From: Paludibacteraceae bacterium
GTDB lineage: Bacteria; Bacteroidota; Bacteroidia; Bacteroidales; Paludibacteraceae
Direction: 5' to 3'
Assembly (NCBI GenBank): GCA_017448985.1
Contig: JAFSKL010000010.1
Span: 20,250 to 84,249, forward strand
Length of the DNA: 64,000 nt
The translations under genes and the position numbers were made by a program. Below the pieces are notes generated by a model. The model saw nothing but the letters and a program-made list of their open reading frames with translations, had not been told where the DNA came from and made no database searches. This document shows positions 299 through 60,015 of the stretch, one piece after another. The number at the start of each line of letters is the position of its first letter. Within the stretch, counting starts at the first letter, position 1.

Positions 299-1405
299 TT
301 ATTTCACAATACCCTTCTCCAAATATTCGGCAAGGTTAAAGTGTTCTCGTGTCACTTTATGCATATCGTGCTTTACCATCAACTCGACCAGCTCCTCGAA
401 ACTCGTCTTTTGCGGATTCCAGCCCAGTTCCCGTTTCGCCTTACTCGGATCACCCAACAAGTTCACCACATCCGTCGGCCGGTAGAAATCCGGACTCACA
501 GCAACAACAACATCACCCTCTTTAATTTTTAATTTTGAATTTTGAATTTTTAATTCCTCCACGATTCCTTTCTCTTCCACGCCTTTGCCTTCCCAGCGCA
601 ACTCAATACCGGCATGGTGGAAAGCCAACGTCGCGAACTCACGCACCGTATGCTGCACACCCGTTGCTATGACGAAATCTTCGGGCGTATCATGCTGCAG
701 AATGAGCCACATGCACTCCACATAATCCTTGGCATATCCCCAGTCGCGCAACGAATCCAGATTGCCCAAGTACAGGCACTCCTGCAAGCCTTGCGCAATA
801 CGCGCAGCCGCCAAGGTGATCTTACGCGTCACAAACGTCTCGCCGCGACGCTCCGACTCATGGTTAAAGAGGATACCGGAACAGCAGAACATGTTGTACG
901 CCTCGCGGTACTCCTTGATGATCCAATAGCCGTATAATTTAGCCACCGCATAAGGACTGTACGGGTGGAACGGCGTGGTCTCGCTTTGCGGCACTTCCTC
1001 CACCTTGCCGTAGAGTTCGCTCGTCGAGGCCTGGTAGATCTTGCATGTTTTCTCCAGATGATTCGTCCGAACCGCCTCCAGCACACGCAGCACACCTACC
1101 GCATCCACATCGGCCGTGAACTCCGGCGCATCGAAACTGACCTGCACATGACTCTGCGCCGCCAGATTGTATATCTCATCCGGTTGCACCTGTCCTACCA
1201 ACTTAACCAGCGACATCGAGTCGCTCATGTCCGCGTAATGCAAATGAAAATGCGGTTTTCCCTCCAAATGGGCGATCCGCTCGCGAAAATCCACCGAACT
1301 ACGGCGAATAATGCCGTGGACTTCATAACCTTTTTCCAACAAAAACTCCGCCAAATAGGAGCCATCCTGACCCGTAATTCCGGTGATTAGTGCTTTTTTA
1401 GCCAT
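299..1405 (-). CDS. gmd: GDP-mannose 4,6-dehydratase
   Basis: 368 aa. [37 protein letters not shown] and the YAVAKLY catalytic motif. Contains an in-frame heptamer array at 522-556. Confidence 0.95.
522..556. repeat. Heptamer array x5 inside gmd
   Basis: TTAATTT TTAATTT TGAATTT TGAATTT TTAATTC. Encodes [12 protein letters not shown] on the minus strand. Confidence 0.9.
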
Positions 1406-1456: not shown

Positions 1457-1509
1457 TGCGCGCGTACTTTTTTTAAAAAAAGTGTACATTTTGCCCCATA
1501 AACATAAAA

Positions 1510-1537
1510 TTTTCCATTTTCCATTTTCAATTTTCAA
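1510..1537. repeat. Heptamer array x4, intergenic
   Basis: TTTTCCA TTTTCCA TTTTCAA TTTTCAA. Confidence 0.9.
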
Positions 1538-1547
1538 TTAAAATGAC

Positions 1548-4290: not shown

Positions 4291-5380
4291 CAAGACAACT
4301 CCGTTTACGGATATTCACATTGCGTTAGGCGCAAAAATGGCAGAGTTTGCCGGTTTCAATATGCCTATTCAGTACCCTACTGGCATCAATCAGGAGCACA
4401 TGATCGTTCGCGAAGGTGTCGGCGTGTTTGATGTCAGCCACATGGGCGAGTTCTGGGTGAAAGGCGAGAAAGCGCTGGACTTCCTGCAGTATATCACCAC
4501 CAACGACCTGTCGGTCATACCGGCAGGCAAGGCGCAGTACACCTGTATGCCCAACGGCAAAGGCGGTATCGTGGATGATCTGATCATCTATAAATACTCC
4601 ACCACCAAGTACCTCATGGTAGTCAATGCCGGCAATATAGACAAGGACTGGGCGTGGGTCAACCAAATTAAAAATGAAAAATTAAAAATTAAAAATTGGG
4701 GAGATCTCTCTTTGGACAATGCCTCGGACCGTTACGGCCAATTGGCGGTGCAGGGACCGAAGGCGGTGGAACTGCTTCAACTGCTCACCGACCTGGACCT
4801 CAAGTCCATCGACTATTATGCGTTCCGCGAGTGGAGTTTTGCGGGCGTACCGGGTGTCATCCTGTCGAACACCGGTTATACCGGTGCCGGAGGCTTCGAG
4901 CTCTATTTCCCTGCCGACAAAGGGATACAGATCTGGAACGCGCTCTTCGAAGTGGGCAAGCCGTTTGGCCTGGCTCCTATCGGTCTCGGTGCCCGTGACA
5001 GCCTGCGTTTGGAGAAATGGTACTGTCTCTACGGCCACGATATCGACGATACCACCTCACCGCTCGAAGCAGGTCTCGGATGGATCACCAAGCTCGATGC
5101 CAAGGAGTTCATCGACCGCGATTTCCTCAAACAGCAGAAAGCGGAAGGCGTCCAACGCAAACTGGTACACTTCGAGTGCCAGGAGCGTGCTATCCCGCGG
5201 AACGGCTACGACATATGCGATGAATCCGGCAATAATATAGGTCATGTCACCTCCGGCATCATGCTGCCCAACACCAAAACGGGCATCGGAATGGGCTATG
5301 TGCAAACACCCTTTGCCAAGAAAGAGAACATCATCTATATCCGCATCCGCGAGAAACTGATTCCCGCCAAAATTGTCTAA
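4265..5380 (+). CDS. gcvT: Glycine cleavage system aminomethyltransferase T
   Basis: [28 protein letters not shown] and FDVSHMGEF motifs. An alternative start is ATG 4280, because the first 5 codons come from the AAATGGT-type repeat. In-frame heptamer array at 4665-4699. Confidence 0.9.
4665..4699. repeat. Heptamer array x5 inside gcvT
   Basis: AAATTAA AAATGAA AAATTAA AAATTAA AAATTGG. Encodes [11 protein letters not shown]. Confidence 0.9.
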
Positions 5381-12802: not shown

Positions 12803-12830
12803 AATGAATAATGATTAATGAATAATGAAT
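12803..12830. repeat. AATGAAT-family heptamer array x4 (left flank of the four-helix-bundle gene)
   Basis: AATGAAT AATGATT AATGAAT AATGAAT. Confidence 0.9.
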
Positions 12831-12847
12831 ATCTCGCTGAATGTAAC

Positions 12848-13237
12848 ATGGAAGAAACTAAAATATACAATTTAGGCATATTAGAAGATAAAACATATTC
12901 GTTTGCGCTACGAATCATCAAAGCACATAAATATCTAACAGACAAGAATGAATATATTCTCTCAAAACAACTCCTTCGTTCAGGAACTTCCATTGGGGCA
13001 AACTGTCGAGAGGCCACATTCGCTCAAAGTAAGCAAGACTTTGTTAACAAATTAAGTATAGCTTTAAAAGAGACAAACGAAAGTATCTATTGGATAGAAC
13101 TATTGCATGATTCCGGATTTATTACCGATGATAGCTTTGATTCCATTCATGCTGATGGCACAGAAATATTAAAACTATTAATCGCTATCATTAAAACATC
13201 AAAAAGTAATATCCAAAAAATTAAAGATATTCATTAA
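12848..13237 (+). CDS. Four-helix-bundle protein (23S rRNA intervening-sequence protein family)
   Basis: SIGANCREATFAQSKQDFVNKLSIALKETNESIYWIELL is the family signature. Very AT-rich. Flanked by inverted heptamer arrays. The longer start at 12818 lies inside the repeat. Confidence 0.8.
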   Translation: MEETKIYNLGILEDKTYSFALRIIKAHKYLTDKNEYILSKQLLRSGTSIGANCREATFAQSKQDFVNKLSIALKETNESIYWIELLHDSGFITDDSFDSIHADGTEILKLLIAIIKTSKSNIQKIKDIH

Positions 13238-13266
13238 TCATTATTAATTATTAATTATTCATTAAT
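13229..13266. repeat. Inverted AATGAAT-family array x5 (right flank of the four-helix-bundle gene)
   Basis: ATTCATT AATCATT ATTAATT ATTAATT ATTCATT AAT. This is the reverse complement of the left-flank family. Confidence 0.9.
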
Positions 13267-14574
13267 ATGTTAGAACATTTGATTCCGGCGTGGATGCTAA
13301 TCCCGTTTGTAGTGATGCTGCTATGCATCGCAGTGCTTCCGCTGATTCCTCATGTGGGCGAGTGGTGGGAGCATAATGTACACAAGCTGTATGTTTCGCT
13401 GATCCTCGGCGTGCCCGTAGGTTTCTGGCTGTGCGCACACGGCATGAGTCACGAGCTGATTCACCAGATGATCTTCGACTATGTGCCTTTCATCCTGCTG
13501 CTGATGGCGCTGTTTGTAACGACCGGCGGTATCTGTATCCGAGGTGACTTGAAAGCGACACCGCAGACTAACACGATCATCTTAGCTATCGGCTGGGTGC
13601 TGGCTTCGTTCATGGGAACGACCGGTGCAGCGATGCTGCTCATCCGTCTGCTGTTGGCAACCATCTCGCAACGCAAGTACAAAGTGCACACGGTCCTTTT
13701 CTTCATCGCCATCGTGGCTAACTGCGGCGGTCTGCTGTCTCCGCTCGGCGATCCTCCTTTGTTCCTGCTGTTCCAGAAAGGTACGCCGTTCATGTGGTGG
13801 CTTCAGAACATGCTTCCCGAATGGGCGCTGACAGGAGCTCTGCTTCTCGGTATCTACTTTGTGATCGATGTCTATTTCTACAAGAAAGAGCCGGTGGAGA
13901 ACATCATGGCCGATGTGCGCGAGAGCACCAAGATGCAGGCGACGGGTCTGATCAATATCTTCTGGCTGCTGTGCGTGGTGGCGAGCACGATGTTCATCAA
14001 CTCGACTTATATCCCTGCGATGGGTGGCGAACATGCACCATGGTACCTCAAACTGCTGCGCGAGTGGGTCTTCATCGCCATCATCGCCGGTTCGTGGCTG
14101 ACGACGAAGAAGGAAGTGCGGGTGAAGAACAACTACAGCTGGACGCCTATCCTCGAAGTAGCATGTGTCTTCTTAGGAATTTTCGCCACGATGACTCCTG
14201 CTCTGATGTTCCTGCAGCAGAACCCGCTGCCCGTCACGGCTCCGTGGCAGTTCGTCTATTGTACGGGTGCCCTCTCGGCGTTCCTGGACAATGCGCCTAC
14301 GGCCATGGTCTTCCATGCTACGGCTACCACTATCCCGTTAGCTGAAGGCGTAGAAGCGGTGGCAGGTATCGCACCGGAGTTCATGAAGGCTATCTCGATG
14401 GGTGCCGTGTTCTTCGGAGCGCTCACCTATATCGGTAACGGACCTAACTTCATGGTCAAGTCCATCGCCGAGCAGGAAGGAATCGATATGCCGTCGTTCT
14501 TCGGCTATATGATTAAGTTCAGCTTGATCATTCTCCTGCCTGTTTATATCATCGTTCAAATAATATTTATTTGA
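13267..14574 (+). CDS. Ion transporter of the ArsB/NhaD (citrate transporter-like) permease superfamily
   Basis: 435 aa, polytopic. GGLLSPLGDPPLFL and FLDNAPTA motifs are typical of NhaD-type Na+/H+ antiporters. Confidence 0.7.
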   Translation: MLEHLIPAWMLIPFVVMLLCIAVLPLIPHVGEWWEHNVHKLYVSLILGVPVGFWLCAHGMSHELIHQMIFDYVPFILLLMALFVTTGGICIRGDLKATPQTNTIILAIGWVLASFMGTTGAAMLLIRLLLATISQRKYKVHTVLFFIAIVANCGGLLSPLGDPPLFLLFQKGTPFMWWLQNMLPEWALTGALLLGIYFVIDVYFYKKEPVENIMADVRESTKMQATGLINIFWLLCVVASTMFINSTYIPAMGGEHAPWYLKLLREWVFIAIIAGSWLTTKKEVRVKNNYSWTPILEVACVFLGIFATMTPALMFLQQNPLPVTAPWQFVYCTGALSAFLDNAPTAMVFHATATTIPLAEGVEAVAGIAPEFMKAISMGAVFFGALTYIGNGPNFMVKSIAEQEGIDMPSFFGYMIKFSLIILLPVYIIVQIIFI

Positions 14575-14578
14575 AAAA

Positions 14579-14606
14579 GGACAATGGAAAATGGATAATG
14601 TACAAT
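14579..14606. repeat. Heptamer array x4 (left arm)
   Basis: GGACAAT GGAAAAT GGATAAT GTACAAT. Confidence 0.9.
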
Positions 14607-14613
14607 TAATATT

Positions 14614-14641
14614 TCATTTTCAATTTTCAATTTTCAATTTG
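14614..14641. repeat. Heptamer array x4 in opposite orientation (right arm)
   Basis: TCATTTT CAATTTT CAATTTT CAATTTG. Confidence 0.9.
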
Positions 14642-16240: not shown

Positions 16241-16243
16241 TTT

Positions 16244-16271
16244 AATGAATAATTAATAATGAATAATGAAT
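16244..16271. repeat. AATGAAT-family array x4
   Basis: AATGAAT AATTAAT AATGAAT AATGAAT. Nearly identical to 12803-12830, including the following ATCT. Confidence 0.9.
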
Positions 16272-16307
16272 ATCTTTTTATGTGAATATGCTTTCGTCTC
16301 ACGAGAT

Positions 16308-16335
16308 AATCATTAATCATTAACCATTGATAATT
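16308..16335. repeat. Inverted AATGAAT-family array x4, overlapping the ftsZ stop
   Basis: AATCATT AATCATT AACCATT GATAATT. Confidence 0.85.
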
Positions 16336-17587
16336 ACTTTCTTCTAATCCATCCGAACGGTCGGTGAGCAGGTTGCTCCGGCTGTTCCTCCGCTTTGGGT
16401 TCGTCCTCGACGGTAATGACCACCTCTTCGGCAGAGGTCGATTCGGGCCGTTCCTTCGTCTGACGAGGCAGCGTGTCACCCCCTTCGGCAAACAGCGTCT
16501 CGCTCAGGTCGATCAGCTGTGCCTTCTCGTCCTCTAAGGGTTTGGGCACCTGCGGCGGGTAGTTGGCATCGATAGCCTCGGCTATCGTTTTCTTGCCTTC
16601 CACCTCTTCCTCGGATGGCAGCCCGTCGACCTTGTATCCCGTGGCAATGACCGTGACGCGCACTTCCTCGCCCAGCGTCTCGTCGATGGAAGCGCCCCAC
16701 TGCACTTCGATGTCCTCGCCCACTTCCTGGACGAAATCGTTGATCTGGTCGATCTCCTCCATGACGATGGCGTGCTCGGTGGAGCAGTAGAACTGCAGCA
16801 GGATTCGTTCGGCGCCGTGCACATCGTTGGTGTTGACCAGCGGCGAGTTGAGGGCATCGTTGATGGCATTGGTGATACGCCGTTCGCCGGAAGCCCGACC
16901 GATGTTCATGATGGCTACTCCACCCTTGCGGAGTGTGTTGCGCACATCGGCAAAGTCCGTATTGATGTACCCGGGCACCGTGATGATCTCCGCAATCGCT
17001 CTGGCTGCGTTGGCCACCACATCGTCCGACTTGCTGAACGCATTGAGCAGGTTGAGTTCCGGGTAGATCTGTTTGAGTTTCTCATTATTAATAATGAGAA
17101 GCGCGTCCACATGCTTGGCCAGACGAGCCACGCCTGTCATTGCTTTCTCTATCTTCTTCTTGCCCTCGAACGCAAACGGGATCGTGACGATACCAACGGT
17201 CAGTATGCCCATTTCCTGCGCCACCTCCGCCACGACGGCCGAAGCACCGGTACCCGTACCGCCACCCATTCCGGCGGTGATGAACAGCATCTGCGTGCCA
17301 TCATTGAGCGCCTCGCGTATATGCTCGCGGCTCTCCTCGGCGTACTGACGCGCGGTCTCGGGATCGCCGCCGGCACCCAGACCCGGACCCAATTGCAGCT
17401 TACTCGGTACCGACGATTTGATGAGCACCTGGCGATCGGTGTTGCAAACGAGGAAGGTCACATCTTTCAGACCCTGACGGTGCATGTAGTTGACCGCATT
17501 GCAGCCGCCTCCACCTACGCCGATCACTTTGATGATACTATCCTCTGTCAAGCCTTCCAAAGGCAGTGTAATTAAATTATCTTCCAT
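16334..17587 (-). CDS. ftsZ: Cell division protein FtsZ
   Basis: GVGGGGCNAVN and GMGGGTGTGA tubulin signature motifs. Confidence 0.97.
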   Translation of the reverse strand: MEDNLITLPLEGLTEDSIIKVIGVGGGGCNAVNYMHRQGLKDVTFLVCNTDRQVLIKSSVPSKLQLGPGLGAGGDPETARQYAEESREHIREALNDGTQMLFITAGMGGGTGTGASAVVAEVAQEMGILTVGIVTIPFAFEGKKKIEKAMTGVARLAKHVDALLIINNEKLKQIYPELNLLNAFSKSDDVVANAARAIAEIITVPGYINTDFADVRNTLRKGGVAIMNIGRASGERRITNAINDALNSPLVNTNDVHGAERILLQFYCSTEHAIVMEEIDQINDFVQEVGEDIEVQWGASIDETLGEEVRVTVIATGYKVDGLPSEEEVEGKKTIAEAIDANYPPQVPKPLEDEKAQLIDLSETLFAEGGDTLPRQTKERPESTSAEEVVITVEDEPKAEEQPEQPAHRPFGWIRRK

Positions 17588-17591
17588 AACG

Positions 17592-17627
17592 ATTCAATTT
17601 TCCATTTTTCCATTTTCCATTTTCCTA
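17592..17627. repeat. Heptamer array x5 filling the ftsA-ftsZ spacer
   Basis: ATTCAAT TTTCCAT TTTTCCAT TTTCCAT TTTCCTA. The last unit holds the ftsA stop. Confidence 0.85.
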
Positions 17628-19691: not shown

Positions 19692-19719
19692 TTCAGTATT
19701 CAGTATTCAGCATTCAGAC
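19692..19719. repeat. Heptamer array x4 spanning the murC stop and the murC-ftsQ spacer
   Basis: TTCAGTA TTCAGTA TTCAGCA TTCAGAC. Encodes the MurC tail SLNAEY-stop. Confidence 0.9.
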
Positions 19720-21100
19720 TTTTAGTTATCTCGGGCACGAGGCGGTCGATGTCGCCGGCGCCTACAGTCAGTATGACCACGGGCTGCTGACTAAGCGCTA
19801 TGCGTCTCTTCAGCTCCGGCACCAGGTCCTGCTTCTCCACTAATTTCCCATTGTCCATTGTCCATTGTCCATTCGCAAGCAGTATCTCGCTGGTGACACC
19901 CGGTATCGGCTCTTCCCGCGCCGGATAGATAGGCAGCAAGAGGCACTCGTCCAGCGTTGCCAACACACGCGTGAATCCTTCTTTGAAGTCGCGTGTACGC
20001 GTGTAGAGGTGTGGTTGGAAGACTCCTATCAGTCGTCGTTCGGGGAACAGCTTGCGGATCGAATCGATGGCCGTGGCTATCTCTTGCGGGTGATGGGCAT
20101 AATCGTCTATGTACACGATCTTCGGCGTGTGCACATGGATGTTAAACCGGCGCTGGACACCCTTAAAAGTTGAGAGTTGAGAGTTGAAAGTGGAAAGATT
20201 CTTTCCCACCAGATAAGCCACCGCCATGGCTGCCACTGCATTCTCTATGTTCACCCATACGGGCACGCCGAGACGGATGTCTTTCACCGTCTCACGCGGT
20301 GTGACGAAGTCAAACACAATCGTTCCTTCACCCACCCGGATGTTCGTGGCATAGAAATCCGGGCCATTTTCCATTTTCCCTTGTCCATTGTCCATTCCGT
20401 AAGTATAGCACTTCACTCCCGGCTGCAGCCTGGGCACCAGCGCAATGCCGTGCTTCATCACCAGCGCACCGGTGATGAGACTCGTATAATGGGCAAACGC
20501 TTCGCGATAGGCTTCCGGCGTGCCGTAGATATCCAAATGGTCTGGATCGACGGCCGTGACCACGGAGATATACGGTGTCAGCTGATGGAACGAGCGGTCG
20601 TACTCGTCGGCCTCCACCACCACAAACGGACTCTCAGGCTCAATGAGCACATTCGTGCCGTAGTTCATGCTGATGCCGCCGAGGAACGCGTTGACGGGCT
20701 GCAACAGATGAGCAATCATCGTGCTCGTCGTTGTCTTGCCGTGTGTCCCCGCCACGCAGAGCGCCTGCTTCCGGCGAGTCACATCACCCAACACCTCGGC
20801 ACGCTTCTTGATCTGAAATCCGTGCTCGCGAAAATACCGATACAAAAGACTATCCTCCGGCACAGCCGGTGTACGGACCACAAGCGTATTGTCTGAATGA
20901 AAAATGGACAATGGACAATGGAAAATGGAGGGATCGTCCTCATAGGTGATCTCAATGCCCTCCGCCTCCAGCTCCCCGGTCAGTTCCGACGGCGTGCGGT
21001 CATAACCCGACACATGATAGCCCTGACGCTGAAAATACCGCGCCAAGGCACTCATTCCGATGCCACCGATGCCCAAGAAAAAGATATTTTTCGCCTTCAT
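19700..21100 (-). CDS. murC: UDP-N-acetylmuramate--L-alanine ligase
   Basis: MKAKNIFFLGIGGIGMSALA and GTHGKTTTSTM motifs. Start set at ATG 21100 because the -7 box (21116-21123) lies in the longer ORF. Carries four in-frame heptamer arrays. Confidence 0.92.
   Translation of the reverse strand: MKAKNIFFLGIGGIGMSALARYFQRQGYHVSGYDRTPSELTGELEAEGIEITYEDDPSIFHCPLSIFHSDNTLVVRTPAVPEDSLLYRYFREHGFQIKKRAEVLGDVTRRKQALCVAGTHGKTTTSTMIAHLLQPVNAFLGGISMNYGTNVLIEPESPFVVVEADEYDRSFHQLTPYISVVTAVDPDHLDIYGTPEAYREAFAHYTSLITGALVMKHGIALVPRLQPGVKCYTYGMDNGQGKMENGPDFYATNIRVGEGTIVFDFVTPRETVKDIRLGVPVWVNIENAVAAMAVAYLVGKNLSTFNSQLSTFKGVQRRFNIHVHTPKIVYIDDYAHHPQEIATAIDSIRKLFPERRLIGVFQPHLYTRTRDFKEGFTRVLATLDECLLLPIYPAREEPIPGVTSEILLANGQWTMDNGKLVEKQDLVPELKRRIALSQQPVVILTVGAGDIDRLVPEITKSLNAEY
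19844..19871. repeat. Heptamer array x4 inside murC
   Basis: TTTCCCA TTGTCCA TTGTCCA TTGTCCA. Encodes NGQWTMDNGK. Confidence 0.9.
20169..20196. repeat. Heptamer array x4 inside murC
   Basis: GTTGAGA GTTGAGA GTTGAAA GTGGAAA. Encodes LSTFNSQLST. Confidence 0.9.
20366..20397. repeat. Heptamer array x4-5 inside murC
   Basis: ATTTTCC ATTTTCC CTTGTCC ATTGTCC ATTCC. Encodes MDNGQGKMENG. Confidence 0.9.
20899..20926. repeat. Heptamer array x4 inside murC, opposite orientation
   Basis: GAAAAAT GGACAAT GGACAAT GGAAAAT. Encodes FHCPLSIFH on the minus strand. Confidence 0.9.
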
Positions 21101-24866: not shown

Positions 24867-26156
24867 ATGTTTTTGTATTTTCTATTGATACGAATCGCGG
24901 CGCTGTTCGGGCACAAGAAAGCCCGTGCGTTGGTGGAAGGCCAGAAGTCAGCATTCAGCTTTGAGCCGTCAGTATTCAGCGGCTGCATATGGATTCATGC
25001 GGCTTCGGCAGGCGAGTTCGAGCAGTCGAGGACGCTGATTGAGAGGATAAAGGACGCTTCGCTACAGGACGGCGCAAGCGCCTACAAAGAAAAGGTTGTT
25101 GTCACATTCTTTAGTCCGTCGGGATACAAGGCACATAAGGGGAACGAATTGTTGGACGGCGTGCTGTACCTGCCCTTTGCCACGCGGCGCAATGCGCGCA
25201 AGTTCATCGAGGCCCTGCAACCGAAAATGGCCATCTTCGTCAAATACGAGTTCTGGCCCGCCTATATACGCGAACTGAAGAAACGCGATATCCCCATTTA
25301 CAGCATCTCGGCTATCTTCCGTCCGAAGCAGTATTTCTTCCGGTGGTGGGGCAAAGGTCAACTGCGCATACTGCGTGCTTTCACGCATATCTTCGTGCAG
25401 GACGAGGCCTCGCGACGGCTGTTGGCGGAGCACGGCGTGCATAACGCAAGCGTGGCAGGAGACACGCGATTTGACAGAGTCAAACAGACCGCTTGCGCTG
25501 TAAGACCGGCTTCGCCTGTAGGATTGCAGCCCATAGCAGAGTTTGCGGAAGGGTGCAAGAGGGTGTTGGTGGCAGGAAGCACATGGCCGGAGGATGAGGC
25601 GCTATTAGCGCAATTAAAAATTAAAAATGAAGAATTAAAAATTATTCTTGTGCCGCACGAGATAAACGAGGCACATCTGCATTTCATTTTCAATCTGTTC
25701 AAGGGACGGATGGTGAAGTACAGTTCAATTGAAAATGGACAAAGGAAAATGGAAAATGGGATTGTTAGCCGGCGGAACATACTGCGGCACGCGGAGGTGA
25801 TGGTGGTGGATACGATCGGTCTGTTGAGTTCGATCTATCAGTTCGGGCAGGTGGCTTATGTAGGCGGCGGCTTCGGCGAAGGGATTCACAACACCATCGA
25901 AGCGGCGGTGTATGGTGTGCCGGTGATTTTCGGGCCTAACTACCAACGATTTCGCGAGGCACAAGGACTGATTGATGCCGGTGCAGGCAAGAGCGTGCGC
26001 AAATACAATGAGTTTGAAGAGGCGGTGGAGACAGCTTTTGCGCAGCATGAAGACTTAGGCGCCAAAGCGGCGGAGTATGTGGAGAGCGAGTTGGGAGCGA
26101 CTGCAAAAATCTGCGAGCAGATTTTTGCAAATGGAAAATGGAAAATGGAAAATTGA
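24867..26156 (+). CDS. waaA: 3-deoxy-D-manno-octulosonic acid (Kdo) transferase
   Basis: IWIHAASAGEFEQSRTLIERI and a C-terminal GGGFGEGIHNTIEAAVYGVPVIFGP motif. Start set downstream of promoter 24801-24832. Three heptamer arrays, the last of which provides the C-terminus and stop. Confidence 0.85.
   Translation: MFLYFLLIRIAALFGHKKARALVEGQKSAFSFEPSVFSGCIWIHAASAGEFEQSRTLIERIKDASLQDGASAYKEKVVVTFFSPSGYKAHKGNELLDGVLYLPFATRRNARKFIEALQPKMAIFVKYEFWPAYIRELKKRDIPIYSISAIFRPKQYFFRWWGKGQLRILRAFTHIFVQDEASRRLLAEHGVHNASVAGDTRFDRVKQTACAVRPASPVGLQPIAEFAEGCKRVLVAGSTWPEDEALLAQLKIKNEELKIILVPHEINEAHLHFIFNLFKGRMVKYSSIENGQRKMENGIVSRRNILRHAEVMVVDTIGLLSSIYQFGQVAYVGGGFGEGIHNTIEAAVYGVPVIFGPNYQRFREAQGLIDAGAGKSVRKYNEFEEAVETAFAQHEDLGAKAAEYVESELGATAKICEQIFANGKWKMEN
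25612..25646. repeat. Heptamer array x5 inside waaA
   Basis: AATTAAA AATTAAA AATGAAG AATTAAA AATTATT. Encodes LKIKNEELKII. Confidence 0.9.
25723..25760. repeat. Heptamer array x4-5 inside waaA
   Basis: TGAAAAT GGACAAA GGAAAAT GGAAAAT GGG. Encodes IENGQRKMENG. Confidence 0.85.
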
Positions 26157-26175
26157 AAATTGAAAATTTAGAATT
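26126..26175. repeat. Heptamer array x7 forming the waaA C-terminus, its stop and the whole waaA-hisS spacer
   Basis: GGAAAAT x3, TGAAAAT x2, TTAGAAT. The stop TGA arises at the first TGAAAAT unit. The hisS ATG follows 1 nt after the array. Confidence 0.95.
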
Positions 26176-27495: not shown

Positions 27496-27604
27496 TAATC
27501 GTACATTTTTTCAGGTAGCCTTTAACCACGGTTTACCCACGGTTTAACCACGGTATTACCCCTTGTAGTGCATAGAGGGGCAAAATCTTAAAAATAGTAA
27601 ACTT
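27487..27604 (+). repeat. ~118-bp dispersed intergenic element, copy A (hisS / DUF1599 spacer)
   Basis: Shares three blocks with the reverse complement of 50521-50637: 24/24, about 45/45 and 25/25 identical nt, separated by two short divergent patches. Contains the 11-mer array TTAACCACGGT TTACCCACGGT TTAACCACGGT (27522-27554). Confidence 0.9.
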
Positions 27605-27611
27605 TTGAATC

Positions 27612-28148
27612 ATGGCAGATACGAACAAACAATTTGATTTGGTAACGGCCAAGTGCCGGCAGATTTTTGTGGACAAGATGCAGGACTACGGAGCTTCGTG
27701 GCGTATCTTCCGCCTGCACGGTATCACCGACCAGCTCTACATCAAAGCCTGCAACATCCGCCAACTGCAAACGACGGGCGTCAGTCTGGTGGGCGACGAC
27801 ATAGAGGGCAATCTGCGCGCGATCATCAACTACGGCATCACCGCCATCATCCAGGAGCGGAACGGCTACGCCGATTCGATAGACATGAGCAACGAGGAGG
27901 CGATGCGGCACTACGACGAGGTGCTGCACGAGGCCAAAGAGCTGATGGTGCGCAAGAACCATGACTACGGCGAGGCTTGGCGCGAGATGAGCAAAGAGGG
28001 CATCGTCGATATGATACTCGCCAAGATAATTCGCATCAAGACCATCATTGCCAACGGCGGCAAGACGATTGCGTCCGAAGGCATCGAAGGCAACTACTTC
28101 GATATCATCAACTACGCCATTTTCGATCTTATACATTATGAGAATTGA
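27612..28148 (+). CDS. DUF1599 domain protein
   Basis: KCRQIFVDKMQDYGASWRIFR and KNHDYGEAWREM match my recollection of DUF1599. Its usual Bacteroidota neighbour (BT_3928-like) follows. Confidence 0.7.
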   Translation: MADTNKQFDLVTAKCRQIFVDKMQDYGASWRIFRLHGITDQLYIKACNIRQLQTTGVSLVGDDIEGNLRAIINYGITAIIQERNGYADSIDMSNEEAMRHYDEVLHEAKELMVRKNHDYGEAWREMSKEGIVDMILAKIIRIKTIIANGGKTIASEGIEGNYFDIINYAIFDLIHYEN

Positions 28149-28201
28149 CAATGGAAAATGGAAAATGGAAAATTGACAATGGAAAATGGAAAATGTAAAA
28201 T
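28146..28201. repeat. Heptamer array x8 forming the whole spacer, from the DUF1599 stop to the next ATG
   Basis: TGACAAT GGAAAAT x3 TGACAAT GGAAAAT x2 GTAAAAT. The first unit holds the TGA stop and the last holds ATG 28200. Confidence 0.95.
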
Positions 28202-29321
28202 GAAAGAGAGAACCGTCAAACATATCCTCGGAAGCGTAGCCCGCACGTTGCTGGCACTGACCTTCCTGTTCTCGGGTTTTGTGAAAGCCGTGGATCCGTT
28301 AGGTACCGTCTATAAGATAGAGGACTACCTGAAGGCCTTCGGCGGATTCTTCACCGACCTGCTGCCCTTAGCCGGCACCGCAGCGGTGCTGCTTATAGCG
28401 GTAGAGTTCGTGCTCGGATTCTGCATGCTGTTCAATGTGCGGACCAACTGGACGAGCTGGCTGTCGTTAGTGTTTTACCTGGTGATGACGCCGTTGACGC
28501 TGTGGATAGCGCTGACCAATCCCGTGACCGACTGCGGCTGTTTCGGCGATGCGCTGGTGTTGACCAATTGGCAGACCTTCTGGAAGAACGTCATCCTGCT
28601 GAGTCTCGTGGTCGTACTGCTGATCTGCCTCAAGGCCGTTCCGCCGCTGTTCAGCTGGTGGATGGAGCTCGTGATAACGCTCGTCGGATTGGGCATAGCC
28701 GGCGGCATAATGGGCTATTCCTATACCCACCTGCCTCCGATGGACTTCCGGCCGTACAAAGTGGGCAACCATATCCCCACCCTGATGGAGATACCTGATG
28801 ACGCAGAACCGGACATCTACGAGACGACGCTCATCTATGCCAAAGACGGCGTAGAGCAGGAGTTCACTCTGGCCGACTACCCCAAAGGCGACAGCACATG
28901 GACCTTCGTCGATCAGAAATCCGTGCTCATCAAGAAAGGCTACGAGCCGCCGATTCACGACTTTGAGATCATGACGCTCGATTTCTACGACATCACCTAC
29001 GACATCCTTGAAGCCGACGAGCCAATCACGCTCGTCACGATGTACGACCTGAACAAGACCGACCGCAAGCAGATAGACAAAGTGCTGCAGCTGATGCGAG
29101 ACTGCCGGCGGGACGACAAGATACTCTATATCCTGACCGGAAGCGGCGAGGACGACATCTTTGCTTTCGCCGACGAGATAGGCCTGGACGAAGAGGTGGC
29201 GGAGCATGTGTTCTGCACCATCGATCCCGTGACGCTCAAGACTATTGTCAGGGCTAATCCGGGCATGTTCGTCGTGCAGGACGGTGTGATCATCGAGAAA
29301 CATAATTTTCGACAATTGTAG
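28200..29321 (+). CDS. BT_3928-like membrane protein (DoxX-like N-terminus, thioredoxin-fold-like C-terminus)
   Basis: Four N-terminal TM helices with FSGFVKAVDP and TDCGCFGD motifs. Start set at ATG 28200, because the 14 upstream codons of the track ORF are pure heptamer repeat. Confidence 0.65.
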   Translation: MKERTVKHILGSVARTLLALTFLFSGFVKAVDPLGTVYKIEDYLKAFGGFFTDLLPLAGTAAVLLIAVEFVLGFCMLFNVRTNWTSWLSLVFYLVMTPLTLWIALTNPVTDCGCFGDALVLTNWQTFWKNVILLSLVVVLLICLKAVPPLFSWWMELVITLVGLGIAGGIMGYSYTHLPPMDFRPYKVGNHIPTLMEIPDDAEPDIYETTLIYAKDGVEQEFTLADYPKGDSTWTFVDQKSVLIKKGYEPPIHDFEIMTLDFYDITYDILEADEPITLVTMYDLNKTDRKQIDKVLQLMRDCRRDDKILYILTGSGEDDIFAFADEIGLDEEVAEHVFCTIDPVTLKTIVRANPGMFVVQDGVIIEKHNFRQL

Positions 29322-29345
29322 ATTGTAGATTGTAAATTGTAAATT
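29311..29345. repeat. Heptamer array x5 upstream of tpiA
   Basis: GACAATT GTAGATT GTAGATT GTAAATT GTAAATT. Includes the TAG stop of the upstream gene. Confidence 0.9.
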
Positions 29346-29354: not shown

Positions 29355-30107
29355 ATGGCAAGAATTAAAATGGTGGCAGGTAACTGGAAAATGAACAAGA
29401 ACCTGCAGGAAGGTGTAGCATTGGCTACCGAGTTGAAAGAGGCTGTGAAAGCCCCGAAGTGTGCCGTTGTTATCGGTACTCCTTTTATCCACTTGGCTAC
29501 CGTAGCCGAGTTGCTCAAAGGCTCGCCGATTAAGGTGGCGGCTGAGAACTGCGCGGACCACGAGAAAGGTGCGTACACCGGTGAGGTGAGTGCCGAGATG
29601 GTGAAATCGACCGGCGCCGAGTACGTCATCTTGGGTCACTCGGAGCGTCGTCAATACTACGCCGAGAGCTACGAGATGCTGGCTCAGAAAGTGCGTCTGG
29701 CTTTGGCTAACGGGCTGAAGGTGATTTTCTGCATCGGCGAGGTGAAAGAGGAGCGCGAGGCTGGTCGTCAGAACGAAGTGGTGAAAGCCCAACTCGAAGG
29801 TTCGGTCTTCGGTCTGAGCGCCGATGAGTGGAAGCAGATCGTGCTGGCTTACGAACCCGTTTGGGCAATCGGTACAGGTCTGACCGCTACGCCGGAGCAG
29901 GCACAGGAGATACACGCGTTCATCCGTTCGCTCGTGGCTGAGAAATTCGGCAAAGAGGCAGCGGAGGACACCACTATTCTCTACGGCGGCAGCTGCAACG
30001 AGAAGAACGCAGCCGAACTGTTCGCTTGTCCGGACATCGACGGCGGCCTGATCGGTGGTGCCGCACTCGTGGCAGAGAAGTTCTTAGCTATCATCGCTGC
30101 GCGATAA
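29355..30107 (+). CDS. tpiA: Triosephosphate isomerase
   Basis: [27 protein letters not shown] and YGGS motifs. Confidence 0.97.
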
Positions 30108-30145
30108 CTAGTCTACTAGTCAACTAGTCTACTAGTCAACTAGAA
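30106..30145. repeat. 8-mer array x5 after tpiA
   Basis: AACTAGTC TACTAGTC AACTAGTC TACTAGTC AACTAGAA. ACTAGT palindromes recur every 8 nt. Confidence 0.9.
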
Positions 30146-30677: not shown

Positions 30678-30691
30678 GTGACTTCGTCACG

Positions 30692-30716
30692 TTAAATGGT
30701 TAAATAGTTAAAATGG
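30692..30716. repeat. Degenerate 8-mer array x3 upstream of pyrH
   Basis: TTAAATGG TTAAATAG TTAAAATGG. Confidence 0.6.
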
Positions 30717-30748
30717 TTTTTATTACATAAAAACGTTAAATTGTTACT

Positions 30749-32025: not shown

Positions 32026-32060
32026 CATTGGTAATTGGTGATTGGTAATTGGTGATTGGT
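32026..32060. repeat. Heptamer array x5 in the frr-rsgA spacer, including the rsgA start
   Basis: CATTGGT AATTGGT GATTGGT AATTGGT GATTGGT. Confidence 0.9.
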
Positions 32061-33009
32061 GAGAGGCTTAGTCATTAGGTCAACGGGAAGCAGTTACATC
32101 GTTCGTATGGACGATGGTTCGGATGTGGAGTGCCGGATCAAAGGCAATTTCCGCATCCGAGGTATCCGTACGACCAATCCTGTGGCTGTCGGCGACTATG
32201 TGGAGGTTAACACTAAGGACCCTAACGACCATAAGGATCTTAAGGACACTTTCTGGATCACCGATGTCGAGGAGCGGCGCAACTATATCATCCGTCGGGC
32301 CACGAATCTAAGTAAGGAGAGTCATATCTTAGCGGCCAACATCGATCAGGTGGCGCTTATCGTGACCATCAATCATCCTCAGACCAGTACTACGTTCATT
32401 GACCGCTTTCTGGCGACCTGCGAGGCCTACCGCGTGCGCGCGTTCCTTATATTTAATAAGATCGACCTGCTCACGGACGAAGAATTAGAGCAGCTTGCTT
32501 CACTACGCGCACTCTACGAATCGCTCGGCTACGAGACCGCAGCTATCTGCGCCAAGGATCTATCCCCTATCAACAATAACTTATCCCCTTTATTGGCAGG
32601 TCGGACCACGCTGATGAGCGGCAATTCGGGCGTCGGCAAGAGCACGCTGCTCAATACGCTCTTCGGTCGCGAGATGACACGAACGGGCAAGATATCCGAT
32701 GCCCACGACAAAGGAATGCACACCACAACCTTCTCGGAAATGTATTTCCTCGAAATGGACAATGGGCGCATCATTGACACGCCGGGCATCAAGGGTTTTG
32801 GTAGTGTAGATATGCAGAAAGAGGAAGTGAGCCATTATTTCCGGGAGCTGTTCCGCATCTCGAAGGACTGCCGTTTCGGTGACTGCAGTCACACGGGTGA
32901 ACCCGGATGTGCCGTGCAGGAAGCCGTGGTGCGAGGCGACATAGCGCTCAGCCGATACGAATCGTACTTGTCTCTGTTAGGAGACTGTACCGAAAGCAAA
33001 TACCGATAA
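32056..33009 (+). CDS. rsgA: Ribosome small-subunit-dependent GTPase A
   Basis: FNKIDLL, GNSGVGKSTLLN and the zinc-finger CRFGDCSHTGEPGCAV. TTG 32056 or GTG 32059 start lies inside the TGGTAAT array. In-frame 9-mer array at 32213-32248. Confidence 0.9.
   Translation: MVRGLVIRSTGSSYIVRMDDGSDVECRIKGNFRIRGIRTTNPVAVGDYVEVNTKDPNDHKDLKDTFWITDVEERRNYIIRRATNLSKESHILAANIDQVALIVTINHPQTSTTFIDRFLATCEAYRVRAFLIFNKIDLLTDEELEQLASLRALYESLGYETAAICAKDLSPINNNLSPLLAGRTTLMSGNSGVGKSTLLNTLFGREMTRTGKISDAHDKGMHTTTFSEMYFLEMDNGRIIDTPGIKGFGSVDMQKEEVSHYFRELFRISKDCRFGDCSHTGEPGCAVQEAVVRGDIALSRYESYLSLLGDCTESKYR
32213..32248. repeat. 9-mer array x4 inside rsgA
   Basis: ACTAAGGAC CCTAACGAC CATAAGGAT CTTAAGGAC. Encodes TKDPNDHKDLKD. 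Confidence 0.75.
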
Positions 33010-34076: not shown

Positions 34077-34116
34077 ACTAGTTGACTAGCGGACTAGTTG
34101 ACTAGCCGACTAAAGA
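34077..34116. repeat. 8-mer array x5 in the korA-korB spacer and korA 3' end
   Basis: ACTAGTTG ACTAGCGG ACTAGTTG ACTAGCCG ACTAAAGA. Same ACTAG core as 30106-30145. Confidence 0.9.
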
Positions 34117-39263: not shown

Positions 39264-41747
39264 ATGAATATATCGTACAATTGGTTAAAACGCTATATCG
39301 CTTTGCCCGATGAAGCAGAGCAAGTAGCAAAAATTCTTACTTCCATCGGTTTGGAAGTAGGCACAGTGGAAACCGTAGAGTCGATCCGCGGCGGGTTGAA
39401 AGGCCTCGTAGTAGGCGAAGTGCTGACCTGTGTACCCCACCCTAATTCGGACCACTTACATCTGACGACCGTTAACATCGGTGAGCCAAAGCCCATCCAG
39501 ATCGTTTGCGGAGCACCCAATGTGGCAGCAGGACAGAAAGTGATTGTGGCTACTATCGGAACCGTACTCTATGACGGCGACCAGTCGTTTACCATCAAGA
39601 AAGGCAAGCTGCGCGGCGAGGACAGCTGCGGAATGATCTGCGCAGAAGACGAGATAAGCGTCGGCACGGACCATGCGGGTATCATCGTACTGCCTGCCGA
39701 CACGCCCGTCGGAATGAAAGCTGCCGACTATTACCACATAGAGAACGACACGATCATCGAGGTCGATATCACGCCCAACCGCTCGGATGCCGCTTCGCAC
39801 TATGGCGTAGCGCGCGACCTGTACGCCTATTATCAGGTACACGGGCAGAAAGTGGCATTGACCAAACCTTCGGTCGAAGCCTTCCAAATCGACAGCAACG
39901 ACCTGCCGATTAGCGTCTCGATCGATGCGCCGGAAGCGTGTCCGCGTTATACGGGCGTGAGCATCCAAGGCGTAGAGATCAAAGAGTCGCCGGAGTGGCT
40001 CAAGAACAGCCTCACGGCCATTGGTCTGCGGCCCATCAACAATGTGGTCGATGTGACGAACTTCGTACTGCACGAGTGCGGACAAGCCCTGCACGCTTTT
40101 GATGCCGACAAGATAAAAGGCCACGAGATACATGTGCGTTTGGCCCACAAGGGCGAGAAATTCGTCACCTTGGACGGCGTAGAACGCGAGATGAACGAAC
40201 GCGACCTGATGATAGCCAATGCCGACGAAGCCATGTGTATAGCCGGTGTCTTCGGCGGTCTGGAGAGCGGCGTGACCGAGAACACAAAGAATGTGTTCCT
40301 CGAGAGTGCCTATTTCGATCCTGTCTTCATCCGCAAGACCAGCCGTCGGCATCAGTTACAGACCGATGCATCGTTCCGTTTCGAGCGTGGTACGGATCCC
40401 AACAACACACCCTATGTGCTCAAACGCGCAGCCCTGCTCATTCAGGAAGTGGCAGGAGGAAAAGTCAGCATGGACATCACCGACCAGGGACAGACATCCT
40501 TCGCCCCCTGGCCTGTGACCATCGACATCCAGCGCGTCAACTCGCTGATAGGTAAAGCCATTGGTGAAGATACGATAGAGACCATTCTCACCGCTCTTGA
40601 GATCAAGATCGTTGAGAAATTGGAAAATGGACAATGGAAAATTGAAGTACCCCGTTACCGCGTGGATGTACAGCGTGAGTGCGATGTGGTAGAGGACATC
40701 CTGCGGCTCTACGGCTACGACAATGTGGAGTTCCCTGAGAAACTGAACACGAGTCTTGCCTACGGCATCAAGCCCAATCCCGAACAGTTGCGTCGCCGCA
40801 TAGCCGAACAACTGACGGCACAGGGCTTCAACGAGATACTCAACAACTCGCTGACCAAAGTGTCGTACTACGAGCCGCTCCAACAACTGCCCCTGGCCAA
40901 CTGCGTTCGGATCATGAATCCGCTCAGTCAGGACCTCGGCGTGATGCGTCAGACATTGCTTTTCGGCGGACTCGAATCGATAGCCCGTAACGCCAACCGC
41001 AAGAACAGCGACCTCAAGTTCTACGAGTTCGGAAACTGCTATCACTATGATAAGTTGAAAGTTGAAAGTTTAAAGTTGAAAGGACTCGATGCCGATCCGT
41101 TGGCTGCATACTCCGAAGAGCCGCATTTCGGCTTGTGGCTGACCGGTAACAAGACCGCACAGAGTTGGGTACTGCGCGAAGAGAAGACGACCTTCTACCA
41201 ACTGCGCGCATATGTGAACAATGTGCTCGCTCGCTTGGGCGTGAACCTCGACAAAGTGACCGTAGAGCGTCTGGAGAACGAGTTGTTCTCGGATGGTCTG
41301 GTACTCAAAGCCGCTAACGGCAAAGCGCTCGGCTACATCGGCATCGTGGCGCGCAATGTGCTCAAGACATTCGACATCGACCAGGAGGTCTATTACGCCG
41401 ACCTCGACTGGAACCAGCTACTCAAGCAGAACAAACAGTTCAAGGCCGTCATCAGCGACCTGCCCAAGTATCCGGAAGTGAAGCGAGACTTTGCGCTGCT
41501 CGTCGACAAGAGCATCGAGTTCGCGGACCTCGCGCGCGCTGCTTTCGAGACCGAACGCAAACTGCTCAAGAATGTCTATCTGTTCGATGTCTATGAGGGC
41601 AAGAACCTCGAGGCTGGCAAGAAGAGCTATGCGTTGTCGTTCATCCTGCAAGATGCGGAGAACACGCTCAAAGACACACAGATAGAGAACATCATGAACC
41701 GCCTGAAGGCGACCTTCGAACAGAAATTCAATGCTACCCTCCGCTGA
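39264..41747 (+). CDS. pheT: Phenylalanine--tRNA ligase beta subunit
   Basis: MNISYNWLKRYI start, tRNA-binding domain, B3/4 and B5 domains, C-terminal FDVYEGK..SYALSF. Two in-frame heptamer arrays. Confidence 0.95.
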   Translation: MNISYNWLKRYIALPDEAEQVAKILTSIGLEVGTVETVESIRGGLKGLVVGEVLTCVPHPNSDHLHLTTVNIGEPKPIQIVCGAPNVAAGQKVIVATIGTVLYDGDQSFTIKKGKLRGEDSCGMICAEDEISVGTDHAGIIVLPADTPVGMKAADYYHIENDTIIEVDITPNRSDAASHYGVARDLYAYYQVHGQKVALTKPSVEAFQIDSNDLPISVSIDAPEACPRYTGVSIQGVEIKESPEWLKNSLTAIGLRPINNVVDVTNFVLHECGQALHAFDADKIKGHEIHVRLAHKGEKFVTLDGVEREMNERDLMIANADEAMCIAGVFGGLESGVTENTKNVFLESAYFDPVFIRKTSRRHQLQTDASFRFERGTDPNNTPYVLKRAALLIQEVAGGKVSMDITDQGQTSFAPWPVTIDIQRVNSLIGKAIGEDTIETILTALEIKIVEKLENGQWKIEVPRYRVDVQRECDVVEDILRLYGYDNVEFPEKLNTSLAYGIKPNPEQLRRRIAEQLTAQGFNEILNNSLTKVSYYEPLQQLPLANCVRIMNPLSQDLGVMRQTLLFGGLESIARNANRKNSDLKFYEFGNCYHYDKLKVESLKLKGLDADPLAAYSEEPHFGLWLTGNKTAQSWVLREEKTTFYQLRAYVNNVLARLGVNLDKVTVERLENELFSDGLVLKAANGKALGYIGIVARNVLKTFDIDQEVYYADLDWNQLLKQNKQFKAVISDLPKYPEVKRDFALLVDKSIEFADLARAAFETERKLLKNVYLFDVYEGKNLEAGKKSYALSFILQDAENTLKDTQIENIMNRLKATFEQKFNATLR
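40612..40647. repeat. Heptamer array inside pheT
   Basis: GAGAAATT GGAAAAT GGACAAT GGAAAAT TGAAGTA. Encodes EKLENGQWKIEV. Confidence 0.85.
41054..41081. repeat. Heptamer array x4 inside pheT
   Basis: GTTGAAA GTTGAAA GTTTAAA GTTGAAA. Encodes KLKVESLKLK. Confidence 0.9.
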
Positions 41748-60011: not shown

Positions 60012-60015
60012 AGAT

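Follow-up and report, generated by a model that had tools for sequence, protein, structure and literature searches.

The stretch analyzed here, hereafter the window, comprises 64,000 nt of contig JAFSKL010000010.1 from the Paludibacteraceae bacterium assembly GCA_017448985.1 (forward strand, positions 20,250 to 84,249). In it, a DUF1599 gene and a gene for a MauE-like membrane protein are joined by a tandem array of heptamers that runs from the stop codon of the first gene to the start codon of the second (Table 1). An earlier note, made from the letters alone, had described eight heptamers spanning this junction, and the letters of 28146-28201 bear this out one by one: the units are TGACAAT, three GGAAAAT, again TGACAAT, two GGAAAAT, and GTAAAAT, followed by a final G. 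Tandem Repeats Finder returned a period of 7 with 7.6 copies, plus a 28-nt higher-order repeat with 2.1 copies and 96% matches. As the note also observed, GGAAAAT tandems yield several candidate starts; two ATGs lie in frame upstream of the MauE-like start, at 28158 and 28179, and give MENGKLTMENGKCKM. Orthologue alignment favors the ATG at 28200 (373 aa), while public gene calls begin at 28179 or earlier: in the conspecific contigs L081 to L090 described below, the called protein starts at array ATGs and measures 380 aa, or 394 aa in L088. Protein databases hence already contain MauE-like proteins lengthened at the N terminus by array-encoded residues. Altogether, the array holds seven AUGs ahead of the MauE-like start, each with an A at -3.

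A promoter/terminator scan matched an Escherichia coli-type promoter, TTGACA-17-TAAAAT (11/12 positions), inside 28145-28201. This candidate was rejected: the 28-nt higher-order repeat produces it incidentally, and the promoter consensus of Bacteroidota differs from the E. coli type. The look-alikes are probably meaningless in this phylum but would be relevant on cloning into E. coli. Terminator-like matches were no commoner than in shuffled sequences.

The array is one of many. Our own scan of the window returned 21 arrays of period 7, three of period 8, and four of period 11, against at most 0.025 per period in 40 first-order Markov random windows; a stricter scan retained 19 period-7 arrays and found none at periods 5, 6, 9, 10, or 12. 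Arrays cover 12.3% of the intergenic bases versus 0.78% of the genic bases, and they make up at least 50% of the spacer in 13 of about 24 co-directional spacers of 16 to 93 nt. About half of them are built from GGAAAAT, TGAAAAT, or GGACAAT. Overall, the units are about 71% A+T in a genome with 52% G+C (about 50% in the genomes of relatives). Searched over the whole window, Rfam at gathering thresholds gave no match, and a tRNA/tmRNA scan found none. The same array sequences were recovered in independent ENA, NCBI, and Logan assemblies and are therefore no assembly artefact. All relatives discussed below are metagenome-assembled genomes (MAGs), and short repeats can confuse assemblers; however, identical arrays came from different assemblers and different archives, the arrays are much shorter than a read, and those internal to genes keep the reading frame. 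We accordingly give practically no credence to sequencing or assembly error as their source.

Arrays also meet gene ends elsewhere in the window. The waaA frame reads through ANGKWKMEN and stops at the TGA at 26154-26156, in the first TGAAAAT unit, with the hisS ATG 1 nt past the array; the TAG of the MauE-like gene (29319-29321) falls within the first ATTGTAG unit; the KorA tail, KSLVG-stop, is encoded by 8-mers, and the MurC tail, SLNAEY-stop, by CTGAATR units; the ftsZ stop (TAA, 16334-16336) forms the first letters of TAATKAT units; and the thioesterase tail, ISELEN-stop, lies in AATTAGNG 8-mers. All of these gene ends had been pointed out in the earlier note. Other claims in it needed amendment. 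The rsgA start is inside an array, as proposed, but homology gives the GTG at 32059, one codon after the TTG at 32056 that had been named. The ftsA TAG, listed as an array stop, shares only 1 nt with the array, and the arrays cited at ddh (54676), the MBL gene (55558), and the ABC-2 permease (44594) comprise two to three degenerate units each, at or below our detection thresholds.

To what extent these termini are native can be read from orthologues. GTDB species genomes were scanned with the MauE-like protein, giving 80 loci (63 to 79% identity, 1.41 Mb), nearly all from uncultured Bacteroidales or "Paludibacteraceae" MAGs and mostly from ruminant, pig, horse, and human gut. In these relatives, the DUF1599/MauE-like, waaA/hisS, MauE-like/TIM, TIM/LbH, frr/rsgA, and korA/korB junctions are often overlapping or 1 to 4 nt long (TAATG, TGATATG), compared with 19 to 51 nt of array in the window. 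At the DUF1599/MauE-like junction (67 species), the tail AIFDLIHYEN-stop is kept without an array, the MauE-like ATG then lying within cac tAT GAA AAC TAA so that the genes overlap; other species carry other units at this site (GTCGAAA, AAATTAA, AGTAGAA, TGATAAT, TGAAAAG, GGACAAT, CATCAAA, or 11-mers), many of which begin at the stop. The waaA/hisS junction likewise ranges from a TAATG overlap to arrays of 80 nt, and the MauE-like/TIM, TIM/LbH, frr/rsgA, and korA/korB junctions vary among species in a similar manner.

WaaA orthologues end in IF(x)-stop at window residues 445 to 447 of 454, the last nine or so residues (ANGKWKMEN) being array encoded. KorA has about three array-derived residues beyond the FVKKS-stop of relatives, and the MurC C terminus about two more residues than in relatives, also array derived. 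The rsgA start is an ATG in 14 relatives with a TAATG- or TGATG-type overlap, and a GTG in the last ATTGGTG unit in the window and five array-bearing relatives. In contrast, the tails of DUF1599 (HYEN-stop), MauE-like (Q-L-stop), TIM (AAR-stop), and Frr (MTV-stop) have the same residues as in array-less orthologues, so the array is not the creator of those ends. The proposal of the earlier note that gene ends have been remodelled by array insertion or expansion thus stands in part: the spacers are secondary expansions and some termini (WaaA, KorA, MurC) and the rsgA start are changed, but the other four ends are native. The note had also held that identical terminal residues and spacer lengths in array-less orthologues would make the repeats a coincidence; half of this was seen, in that the four tails are equal and the spacer lengths differ. 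At the MauE-like/TIM junction, cause and effect are reversed. The motif caa tt[ag] TA[AG] (n)ATG is present once in array-less relatives, and in its place the window has two ATTGTAG units followed by two ATTGTAA units. ATTGTAG is plainly the last 7 nt of the gene itself in amplified form; this array grew from the gene end and was not inserted to supply a stop. Arrays may often originate in this way, by growing out of native gene ends, rather than by insertion with new codons.

Variation between strains was traced in conspecific contigs obtained by exact-protein look-ups, ten of them aligned over 17.6 to 38.1 kb of the window and twelve more over 2.8 to 23.2 and 50 to 64 kb. Two, from goat/sheep rumen metagenomes (ERZ28018862 k141_325569 and ERZ28653709 scaffold_262), were 100% identical to the window; the others, including GCA_017448095.1, were 96.6 to 98% identical. 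Nearly all strain indels lie at arrays and comprise whole units, with almost none elsewhere in about 35 kb. Relative to the window, the steps are -7 at 26141 (L087), +14, or two units, at 28156 (L088), +7 at 29314 (L088), -7 at 32048 (five strains), -16 in the 8-mer array at 34077 (L088), and -7 at 13240 (L094), and the array at 26126-26175 shows a G/T unit switch among strains. As the main source of strain indels, the arrays could serve as strain markers. The pyrH/frr spacer, 4 nt in the window (31454-31457), is a 52- to 59-nt TAAATGG/TAAATCG array in seven strains (L081, L083 to L085, L087, L088, and L090); it begins at a new TAA stop and retains the old TGATATTATG at its 3′ end. Indels of L085 at 37.9 to 38.06 kb were ruled out as array changes, the downstream sequence there being different (a synteny break or contig join).

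None of the spacer indels is a multiple of 3. Inside genes, ten of ten net length differences are (+3, +15, +33, -12, -6, -3, +3, +9, +3, and +6), and full-length proteins are called in every strain. Copy number that changes in 7-nt steps between strains recalls contingency (phase-variation) loci, in which it would switch the flanking or host genes, as heptanucleotide repeats do in neuO and in hmw1A/hmw2A (PMC13001214, PMC12721329). This role is contradicted by the housekeeping or essential nature of the genes concerned (murC, hisS, pheT, ftsZ, frr, pyrH) and by the lack of any out-of-frame internal allele among those seen, the ten net differences all being multiples of 3; length changes in spacers, too, leave the flanking reading frames intact. 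We consider a contingency function very improbable.

Strains 96.6 to 98% identical also differ in the kind of array they carry. At seven sites (20364-20396, 25470-25520, 26835-26910, 30680-30745, 34380-34410, 51866-51920, and 54300-54340), unrelated arrays occupy the same position among contigs L081 to L102, with another unit, another period, or no array at all, and coding sites remain in frame. The swaps affect murC, hisS, waaA, korA, a gene like that for oxaloacetate decarboxylase alpha (oadA-like), an aminotransferase gene, and the spacer at 30680-30745. In murC at 20364-20396, for instance, five strains have a GTCTCGAG 8-mer array in place of the ATTTTCC/ATTGTCC array of the window. The thioesterase tail (59988-60011) is the same in strains except for two base substitutions.

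Nine strong in-frame arrays were found, four in MurC and one each in Gmd, GcvT, PheT, OadA-like, and MutY, with weaker ones in WaaA, PheT, and HisS; KorA also counts among the housekeeping genes with in-frame arrays. They encode peptides with a 7-residue period, such as GKWKMEN, DNGQWTM, and SIFHCPL. Against solved homologues, they lie at gaps or variable loops, and in the AlphaFold model of MurC three of the four arrays are in coil with a lowered predicted local distance difference test (pLDDT) score, the fourth overlying a native helix and the L-S-x-F-x-G motif. In the 80 GTDB loci, synteny around murC is not kept within 10 kb, and MurC relatives were taken from a protein search instead. An alignment of 34 such proteins (444 to 500 aa) reveals five or six common insertion hotspots filled with differing 7-residue-periodic peptides and absent as inserts from the shortest homologues. 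Peptides at the same hotspot include SIFHCPLSIFH and EIINHPSSIIN; MDNGQGKMENG, VILRPRDLETSK, and RDNGQWTKDNG; and ANGQWTMDNGK, ANGEWKMENGK, and MERTKEENERMK. Across 81 genomes, crude gene calls place 104 heptamer arrays inside open reading frames (ORFs), with the A-rich strand as the sense strand in 82 of 102 (p = 4e-10). Such a bias would be expected if selection accepted hydrophilic peptides in loops and acted against hydrophobic ones.

The arrays are a trait of this uncultured gut/rumen "Paludibacteraceae" lineage. Counts in the 80 loci for periods 5 to 12 are 0, 0, 126, 30, 6, 3, 32, and 1, and density ranges from 0 to 4.7 arrays per 10 kb (3.0 in the window). In the 81 genomes, short co-directional spacers contain 109 heptamer arrays, compared with four each for convergent and divergent spacers. 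The 153 arrays in short co-directional spacers occupy a median of 0.69 of the spacer; 57 of them start within -6 to +3 nt of the stop codon and 19 further upstream, and 68 of 131 end 0 to 10 nt before the downstream ATG. These occupancies and positions make the observation that whole spacers are repeat, offered in the earlier note for the window, a general rule of the clade. A rule of orientation, with the A-rich strand as sense, was weakly supported for spacer arrays (60:40, p = 0.057) and no mechanism was built on it. Arrays more than 300 nt apart share a unit, allowing one mismatch, in 18.5% of same-genome pairs versus 9.7% of pairs between genomes, the former value being reached in none of 2,000 permutations. 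In the literature library that was searched, no account of such arrays in Paludibacteraceae or RF16 was found.

TABLE 1 Arrays and flanking genes in the window (positions are those of the 64,000-nt stretch)
Feature	Position	Strand	Relation to genes
DUF1599 gene (PF07659)	27612..28148	+	Stop TGA 28146-28148; C-terminal IHYEN-stop native
TGACAAT/GGAAAAT/GTAAAAT heptamer array, 8 units	28146..28202	+	DUF1599 stop TGA to MauE-like start ATG
MauE-like membrane protein gene (PF07291)	28200..29321	+	Start ATG 28200-28202 backed by orthologues
GGAAAAT x3 and TGAAAAT x2 array	26126..26175	+	Encodes last 9 residues of WaaA; WaaA stop 26154-26156; hisS ATG at 26176, 1 nt beyond
ATTGTAG/ATTGTAA array	29315..29345	+	Native end (Q-L-stop) of MauE-like gene forms first unit; TIM ATG 9 nt after
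ACTAGTCN 8-mer array	30107..30143	+	TIM stop TAA towards LbH gene start; self-complementary
ATTGGTR heptamer array	32027..32062	+	Between frr and rsgA; rsgA GTG start (32059) in last unit
CTAGTCNN 8-mer array	34077..34112	-	Spans last KorA codons, stop, and most of korA/korB spacer
CTGAATR heptamers	19692..19717	-	Encode MurC tail LNAEY-stop; reach to 8 nt before next ATG
GGAAAAT array	17593..17625	-	Between ftsA stop and ftsZ start
Two AT-rich heptamer arrays	16243..16336	-	TAATGAT at ftsZ stop; TTCATTA before ATG of next gene
AATTAGNG 8-mers	59990..60014	+	Encode thioesterase tail and stop; next ATG 1 nt on
AATGAAT array	12803..12831	+	Between lepA and PF05635 gene; overlaps PF05635 gene start
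ATTCATT/ATTAATT array	13231..13264	+	Fills 93% of spacer after PF05635 gene
GAAAATG and ATTTTCA arrays	14573..14640	+	Opposite orientations in one spacer
ATTTTCC/ATTTTCA array	1509..1539		Divergent spacer
In-frame murC array (ANGQWTMDNGK)	19848..19873	-	In coil
In-frame murC array (LSTFNSQLSTF)	20168..20197	-	Overlies native helix and L-S-x-F-x-G motif
In-frame murC array (MDNGQGKMENG)	20364..20396	-	
In-frame murC array (SIFHCPLSIFH)	20903..20929	-	
In-frame gmd array	521..555	-	Variable loop
In-frame gcvT array (KNEKLKIKN)	4665..4697	+	8-residue insert versus solved homologue
Two in-frame waaA arrays	25612..25759	+	AATTAAA 25612-25644; AATGGAA 25727-25759
Two in-frame pheT arrays	40616..41082	+	GAAAATG 40616-40646; AAGTTGA 41052-41082
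In-frame oadA-like array	51887..51918	-	Segment replaced in five strains
In-frame mutY array, GACAATG x5	63775..63809	+	

Some further features of the window deserve mention. Between its convergent gene pairs (33010-33036 and 60502-60534) lie plain GC-stem hairpin terminators and no array. A small gene at 12818..13237, of the 23S rRNA-intervening-sequence protein family (PF05635), has AATGAAT-family arrays on both sides in inverted orientation, and the family recurs at 16243-16272. A low-GC stretch at 8000-10980 (0.417 versus about 0.52) holds an acyltransferase-like gene and poorly coding ORFs and is followed, upstream of lepA, by GC-richer 11-mer arrays at 10669-10768. A dispersed element of about 115 nt occurs twice, at 27496-27611 (+) and 50520-50635 (-), the end of each copy coinciding with a gene start; its conserved ends, ATCTTAATAATCGTACATTTTT and GGCAAAATCTTAAAAATAGTAAACTTT, flank a core formed by three units of the 11-mer array TTTAACCACGG. 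In the hisS/DUF1599 spacer of relatives, the ends of this element are kept and the 11-mer cores differ, a comparison for which the two copies in the window are the informative ones. Lastly, coding repeats of period 9, 18, 21, or 27 at 60736-60856, 2952-3020, and 37464-37532 (e.g., in an RNase E/G-like gene) look like ordinary low-complexity protein repeats, distinct from the 7-, 8-, and 11-nt arrays.

As RNA, the heptamer arrays fold no better than shuffled sequences (z, +0.5 to +2.2), and no conserved flanks accompany them at orthologous junctions. The ACTAGT-palindrome 8-mer arrays (30107-30143 and 34077-34112) are self-complementary, with a predicted RNA hairpin of -17.5 kcal/mol (z, -2.1). 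In Bacteroidia, translation initiates without Shine-Dalgarno pairing and rests on low structure and upstream adenines (PMC6847099). The spacer arrays could be selected cis-acting mRNA elements, either unstructured initiation regions or tandem sites for an RNA-binding protein (S1, Csp-like, or RRM), which would set the re-initiation or coupling of operon genes without a Shine-Dalgarno sequence. The concentration of arrays in co-directional spacers, with 68 of 131 ending just ahead of the ATG, speaks for this, as do the lower structure of heptamer arrays relative to shuffles in a group whose initiation depends on it, the A at -3 of every AUG in GGAAAAT|G, and the persistence of an array at a junction across species even though its sequence changes; the same role has been proposed for TAACTGA repeats (PMC4679880). 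However, in many close relatives the genes overlap at these junctions (TAATG) and leave no spacer, and the arrays are therefore dispensable. Orthologous sites do not keep the same unit sequence, spacer arrays favor one orientation weakly, the same units also occur inside coding regions, and multiple upstream AUGs should be harmful in a phylum in which AUG is depleted near start codons (PMC6847099). Selection for such a role is compatible with an origin by slippage and is required by no result here; we regard it as possible, if unlikely.

Overall, the data are best explained by taking the arrays as slippage-driven simple sequence repeats of long unit (7 nt, less often 8 or 11) that are tolerated in operon spacers and protein loops, a reading to which we assign a probability of roughly 0.6. 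It draws on what is directly seen in the excess of periodicity, the lineage-wide occurrence, the variability of orthologous spacers, the unit-step polymorphism, the contrast of native and array-encoded termini, and one clear native seed. Precedents in other bacteria for heptanucleotide excess, stop-codon overlap, proximity to starts, and 7-nt strain indels (PMC4679880, PMC4692102) also support it. Short AT-rich segments would be duplicated or lost by strand slippage, which would both make the arrays and turn them over, a mechanism suggested by the comparison of strains and species. The seed may often be the stop- or start-codon-bearing sequence of a tight gene junction; since ancestral junctions were overlapping or a few bases long, arrays would fill the new spacer and contain the stop and/or start codon. 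They would persist where extra DNA is tolerated, namely, in short co-directional operon spacers and, provided that the frame is kept by a net length divisible by 3, in those surface loops and linkers of proteins that are permissive. Effects on proteins would be incidental and small: a few extra C-terminal residues, a changed start codon, or extra in-frame AUGs. The unstructured AU-rich RNA of the heptamers is predicted to be compatible with downstream initiation without Shine-Dalgarno pairing, and we propose that this is why arrays are tolerated rather than purged. Neutrality, or tolerance, is itself what we infer from these patterns.

Several observations weigh against this explanation. Slippage alone gives no reason for periods of 7, 8, and 11 only, and it leaves unexplained how arrays at fixed sites are replaced by unrelated units or another period between strains 97 to 98% identical. 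Purely local seeding does not predict the sharing of units within genomes (18.5% versus 9.7%) or the dominance of GGAAAAT, TGAAAAT, and GGACAAT, and species no more than 71 to 77% identical have GGAMAAT-family units at the same MurC hotspots. The seven AUGs with A at -3 in the 28146-28202 array stand in a phylum in which AUG is depleted near starts (PMC6847099). Finally, at least seven species (L001, L004, L015, L017, L043, L056, and L063) retain the structured ACTAGT 8-mer array at TIM/LbH, which hints that this class is functional.

Part of this evidence would be accounted for by a dedicated, nonlocal process, whether ectopic gene conversion, an array-carrying mobile element, or enzyme- or RNA-templated synthesis of units at breaks, each genome having its own "dialect." The genome specificity of unit sharing, the replacement of whole arrays (with a change of period in some cases) at fixed sites between near-identical strains, and the presence of one unit family at the same hotspot in distant species all point this way. 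Against it, arrays are flanked by no conserved termini, target-site duplications, or inverted repeats; at least one, at MauE-like/TIM, is plainly amplified native sequence; no candidate enzyme is indicated in the window and no Rfam RNA family matches; and replacement is also explicable by fast unit turnover or by recombination of diverged alleles. We rate a dedicated process of this type as quite improbable. It is similarly doubtful that a nonlocal process generates and replaces arrays at fixed sites that tolerate them (operon junctions and the loops of essential enzymes such as MurC, HisS, and KorA), rather than the arrays being slippage debris alone; such a process would explain the genome-specific units, the use of no periods but 7, 8, and 11, and the 7-mer-to-8-mer swap between strains 98% identical. 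If true, it would be a previously unrecognized route of fast diversification of protein loops and spacers in bacteria, and, should replacement and genome-specific units indeed reflect a dedicated mechanism, a new mode of local hypermutation.

Gene starts, stops, and protein termini beside arrays are unreliable in this abundant uncultured rumen/gut clade. The clade also offers two natural experiments, one on the tolerance of repeat peptides by essential enzymes (MurC varies from 444 to 500 aa across relatives) and one on Shine-Dalgarno-less translation faced with long AU-rich spacers containing many AUGs.

Among known repeat systems, the closest are the long simple sequence repeats (LSSR) of Mrazek, Guo, and Shah (2007), which, as summarized in two later papers (PMC4679880, PMC4692102), have units of 5 to 11 nt with heptanucleotides predominant and polymerase slippage as the proposed source. 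In the features given in those summaries, the likeness lies in 7-nt tandem arrays that are far above chance, mostly intergenic, scattered, and abundant in certain lineages only. Here, too, we found an excess over composition, a lineage trait with heptamers dominant, and whole-unit copy-number steps between strains. Compared with the same summaries, the present arrays differ in their lineage, which is new (gut/rumen Bacteroidales MAGs), in their AT-rich units of many families, in the additional periods of 8 and 11, in their very high density in operon spacers, and in how many of them lie in frame within housekeeping genes, even though 7 is not divisible by 3.

TAACTGA direct repeats occur in marine Beggiatoaceae, cyanobacteria, and five Bacteroidetes, including Paludibacter propionicigenes (MacGregor 2015, PMC4679880). 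Like our arrays, they are heptamers a few nucleotides upstream of starts, some overlapping the upstream stop, with no Shine-Dalgarno sequence present and with 7-nt indels between strains; a few lie inside ORFs, in the stop-free orientation. The "forward" position near starts and stops is seen here as well (68/131 and 57/153), a resemblance of position only. That system has one specific unit, however, as opposed to the dozens of units, strain-level replacement, and common in-frame arrays in essential genes found here, and TAACTGA itself is present in the window as eight single copies and no tandem.

The short tandemly repeated repetitive (STRR) sequences and GGGGA(C/T)T repeats of cyanobacteria and the GGGAATC heptamers of Xanthomonas are over-represented intergenically, many of them 0 to 50 nt from ORF ends, overlaps with stops included (Rehm et al. 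2015, PMC4692102). In Anabaena, 32% of heptamer simple sequence repeats are intragenic. Both the length and the sequence of such repeats vary between close relatives (PMC4692102). Our arrays share the location of intergenic heptamers at ORF ends, the stop overlap, the intragenic fraction, and the variation between close relatives, but they are AT-rich and unstructured where the G-rich heptamers of Xanthomonas and Nostoc are capable of forming G-quadruplexes (PMC4692102). No tandem copies of TAACTGA, the STRR units (CCCCAGT, TTGGTCA, and CAACAGT), GGGAATC, GGGGATT, AAGACTC, or ATCTTTC were found in the window; the arrays therefore represent another lineage and unit set and are not members of those specific systems.

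Phase-variable heptads, i.e., the AAGACTC repeats in the coding region of neuO and the 7-bp repeats in the promoter/5′ untranslated region of hmw1A/hmw2A, resemble the arrays in the 7-nt unit and in copy changes by slippage, those of neuO also in being intragenic, with only multiples of three units in frame (PMC13001214, PMC12721329). They act as on/off or volume switches at single surface or virulence loci, in contrast to the hundreds of loci in housekeeping operons here, where no out-of-frame alleles were seen and the hosts are murC, hisS, pheT, waaA, korA, gmd, gcvT, mutY, and the ftsA/ftsZ and pyrH/frr junctions. Nor do the heptamer arrays form a conserved element with a palindrome or terminal inverted repeats and a stable hairpin, as do repetitive extragenic palindromes, bacterial interspersed mosaic elements, and miniature inverted-repeat transposable elements (REP/BIME/MITE); only the ACTAGT 8-mer class is self-complementary. 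The arrays thus belong to a known kind of repeat, that of the LSSR/STRR and TAACTGA repeats, with an unusually rich in-frame component.

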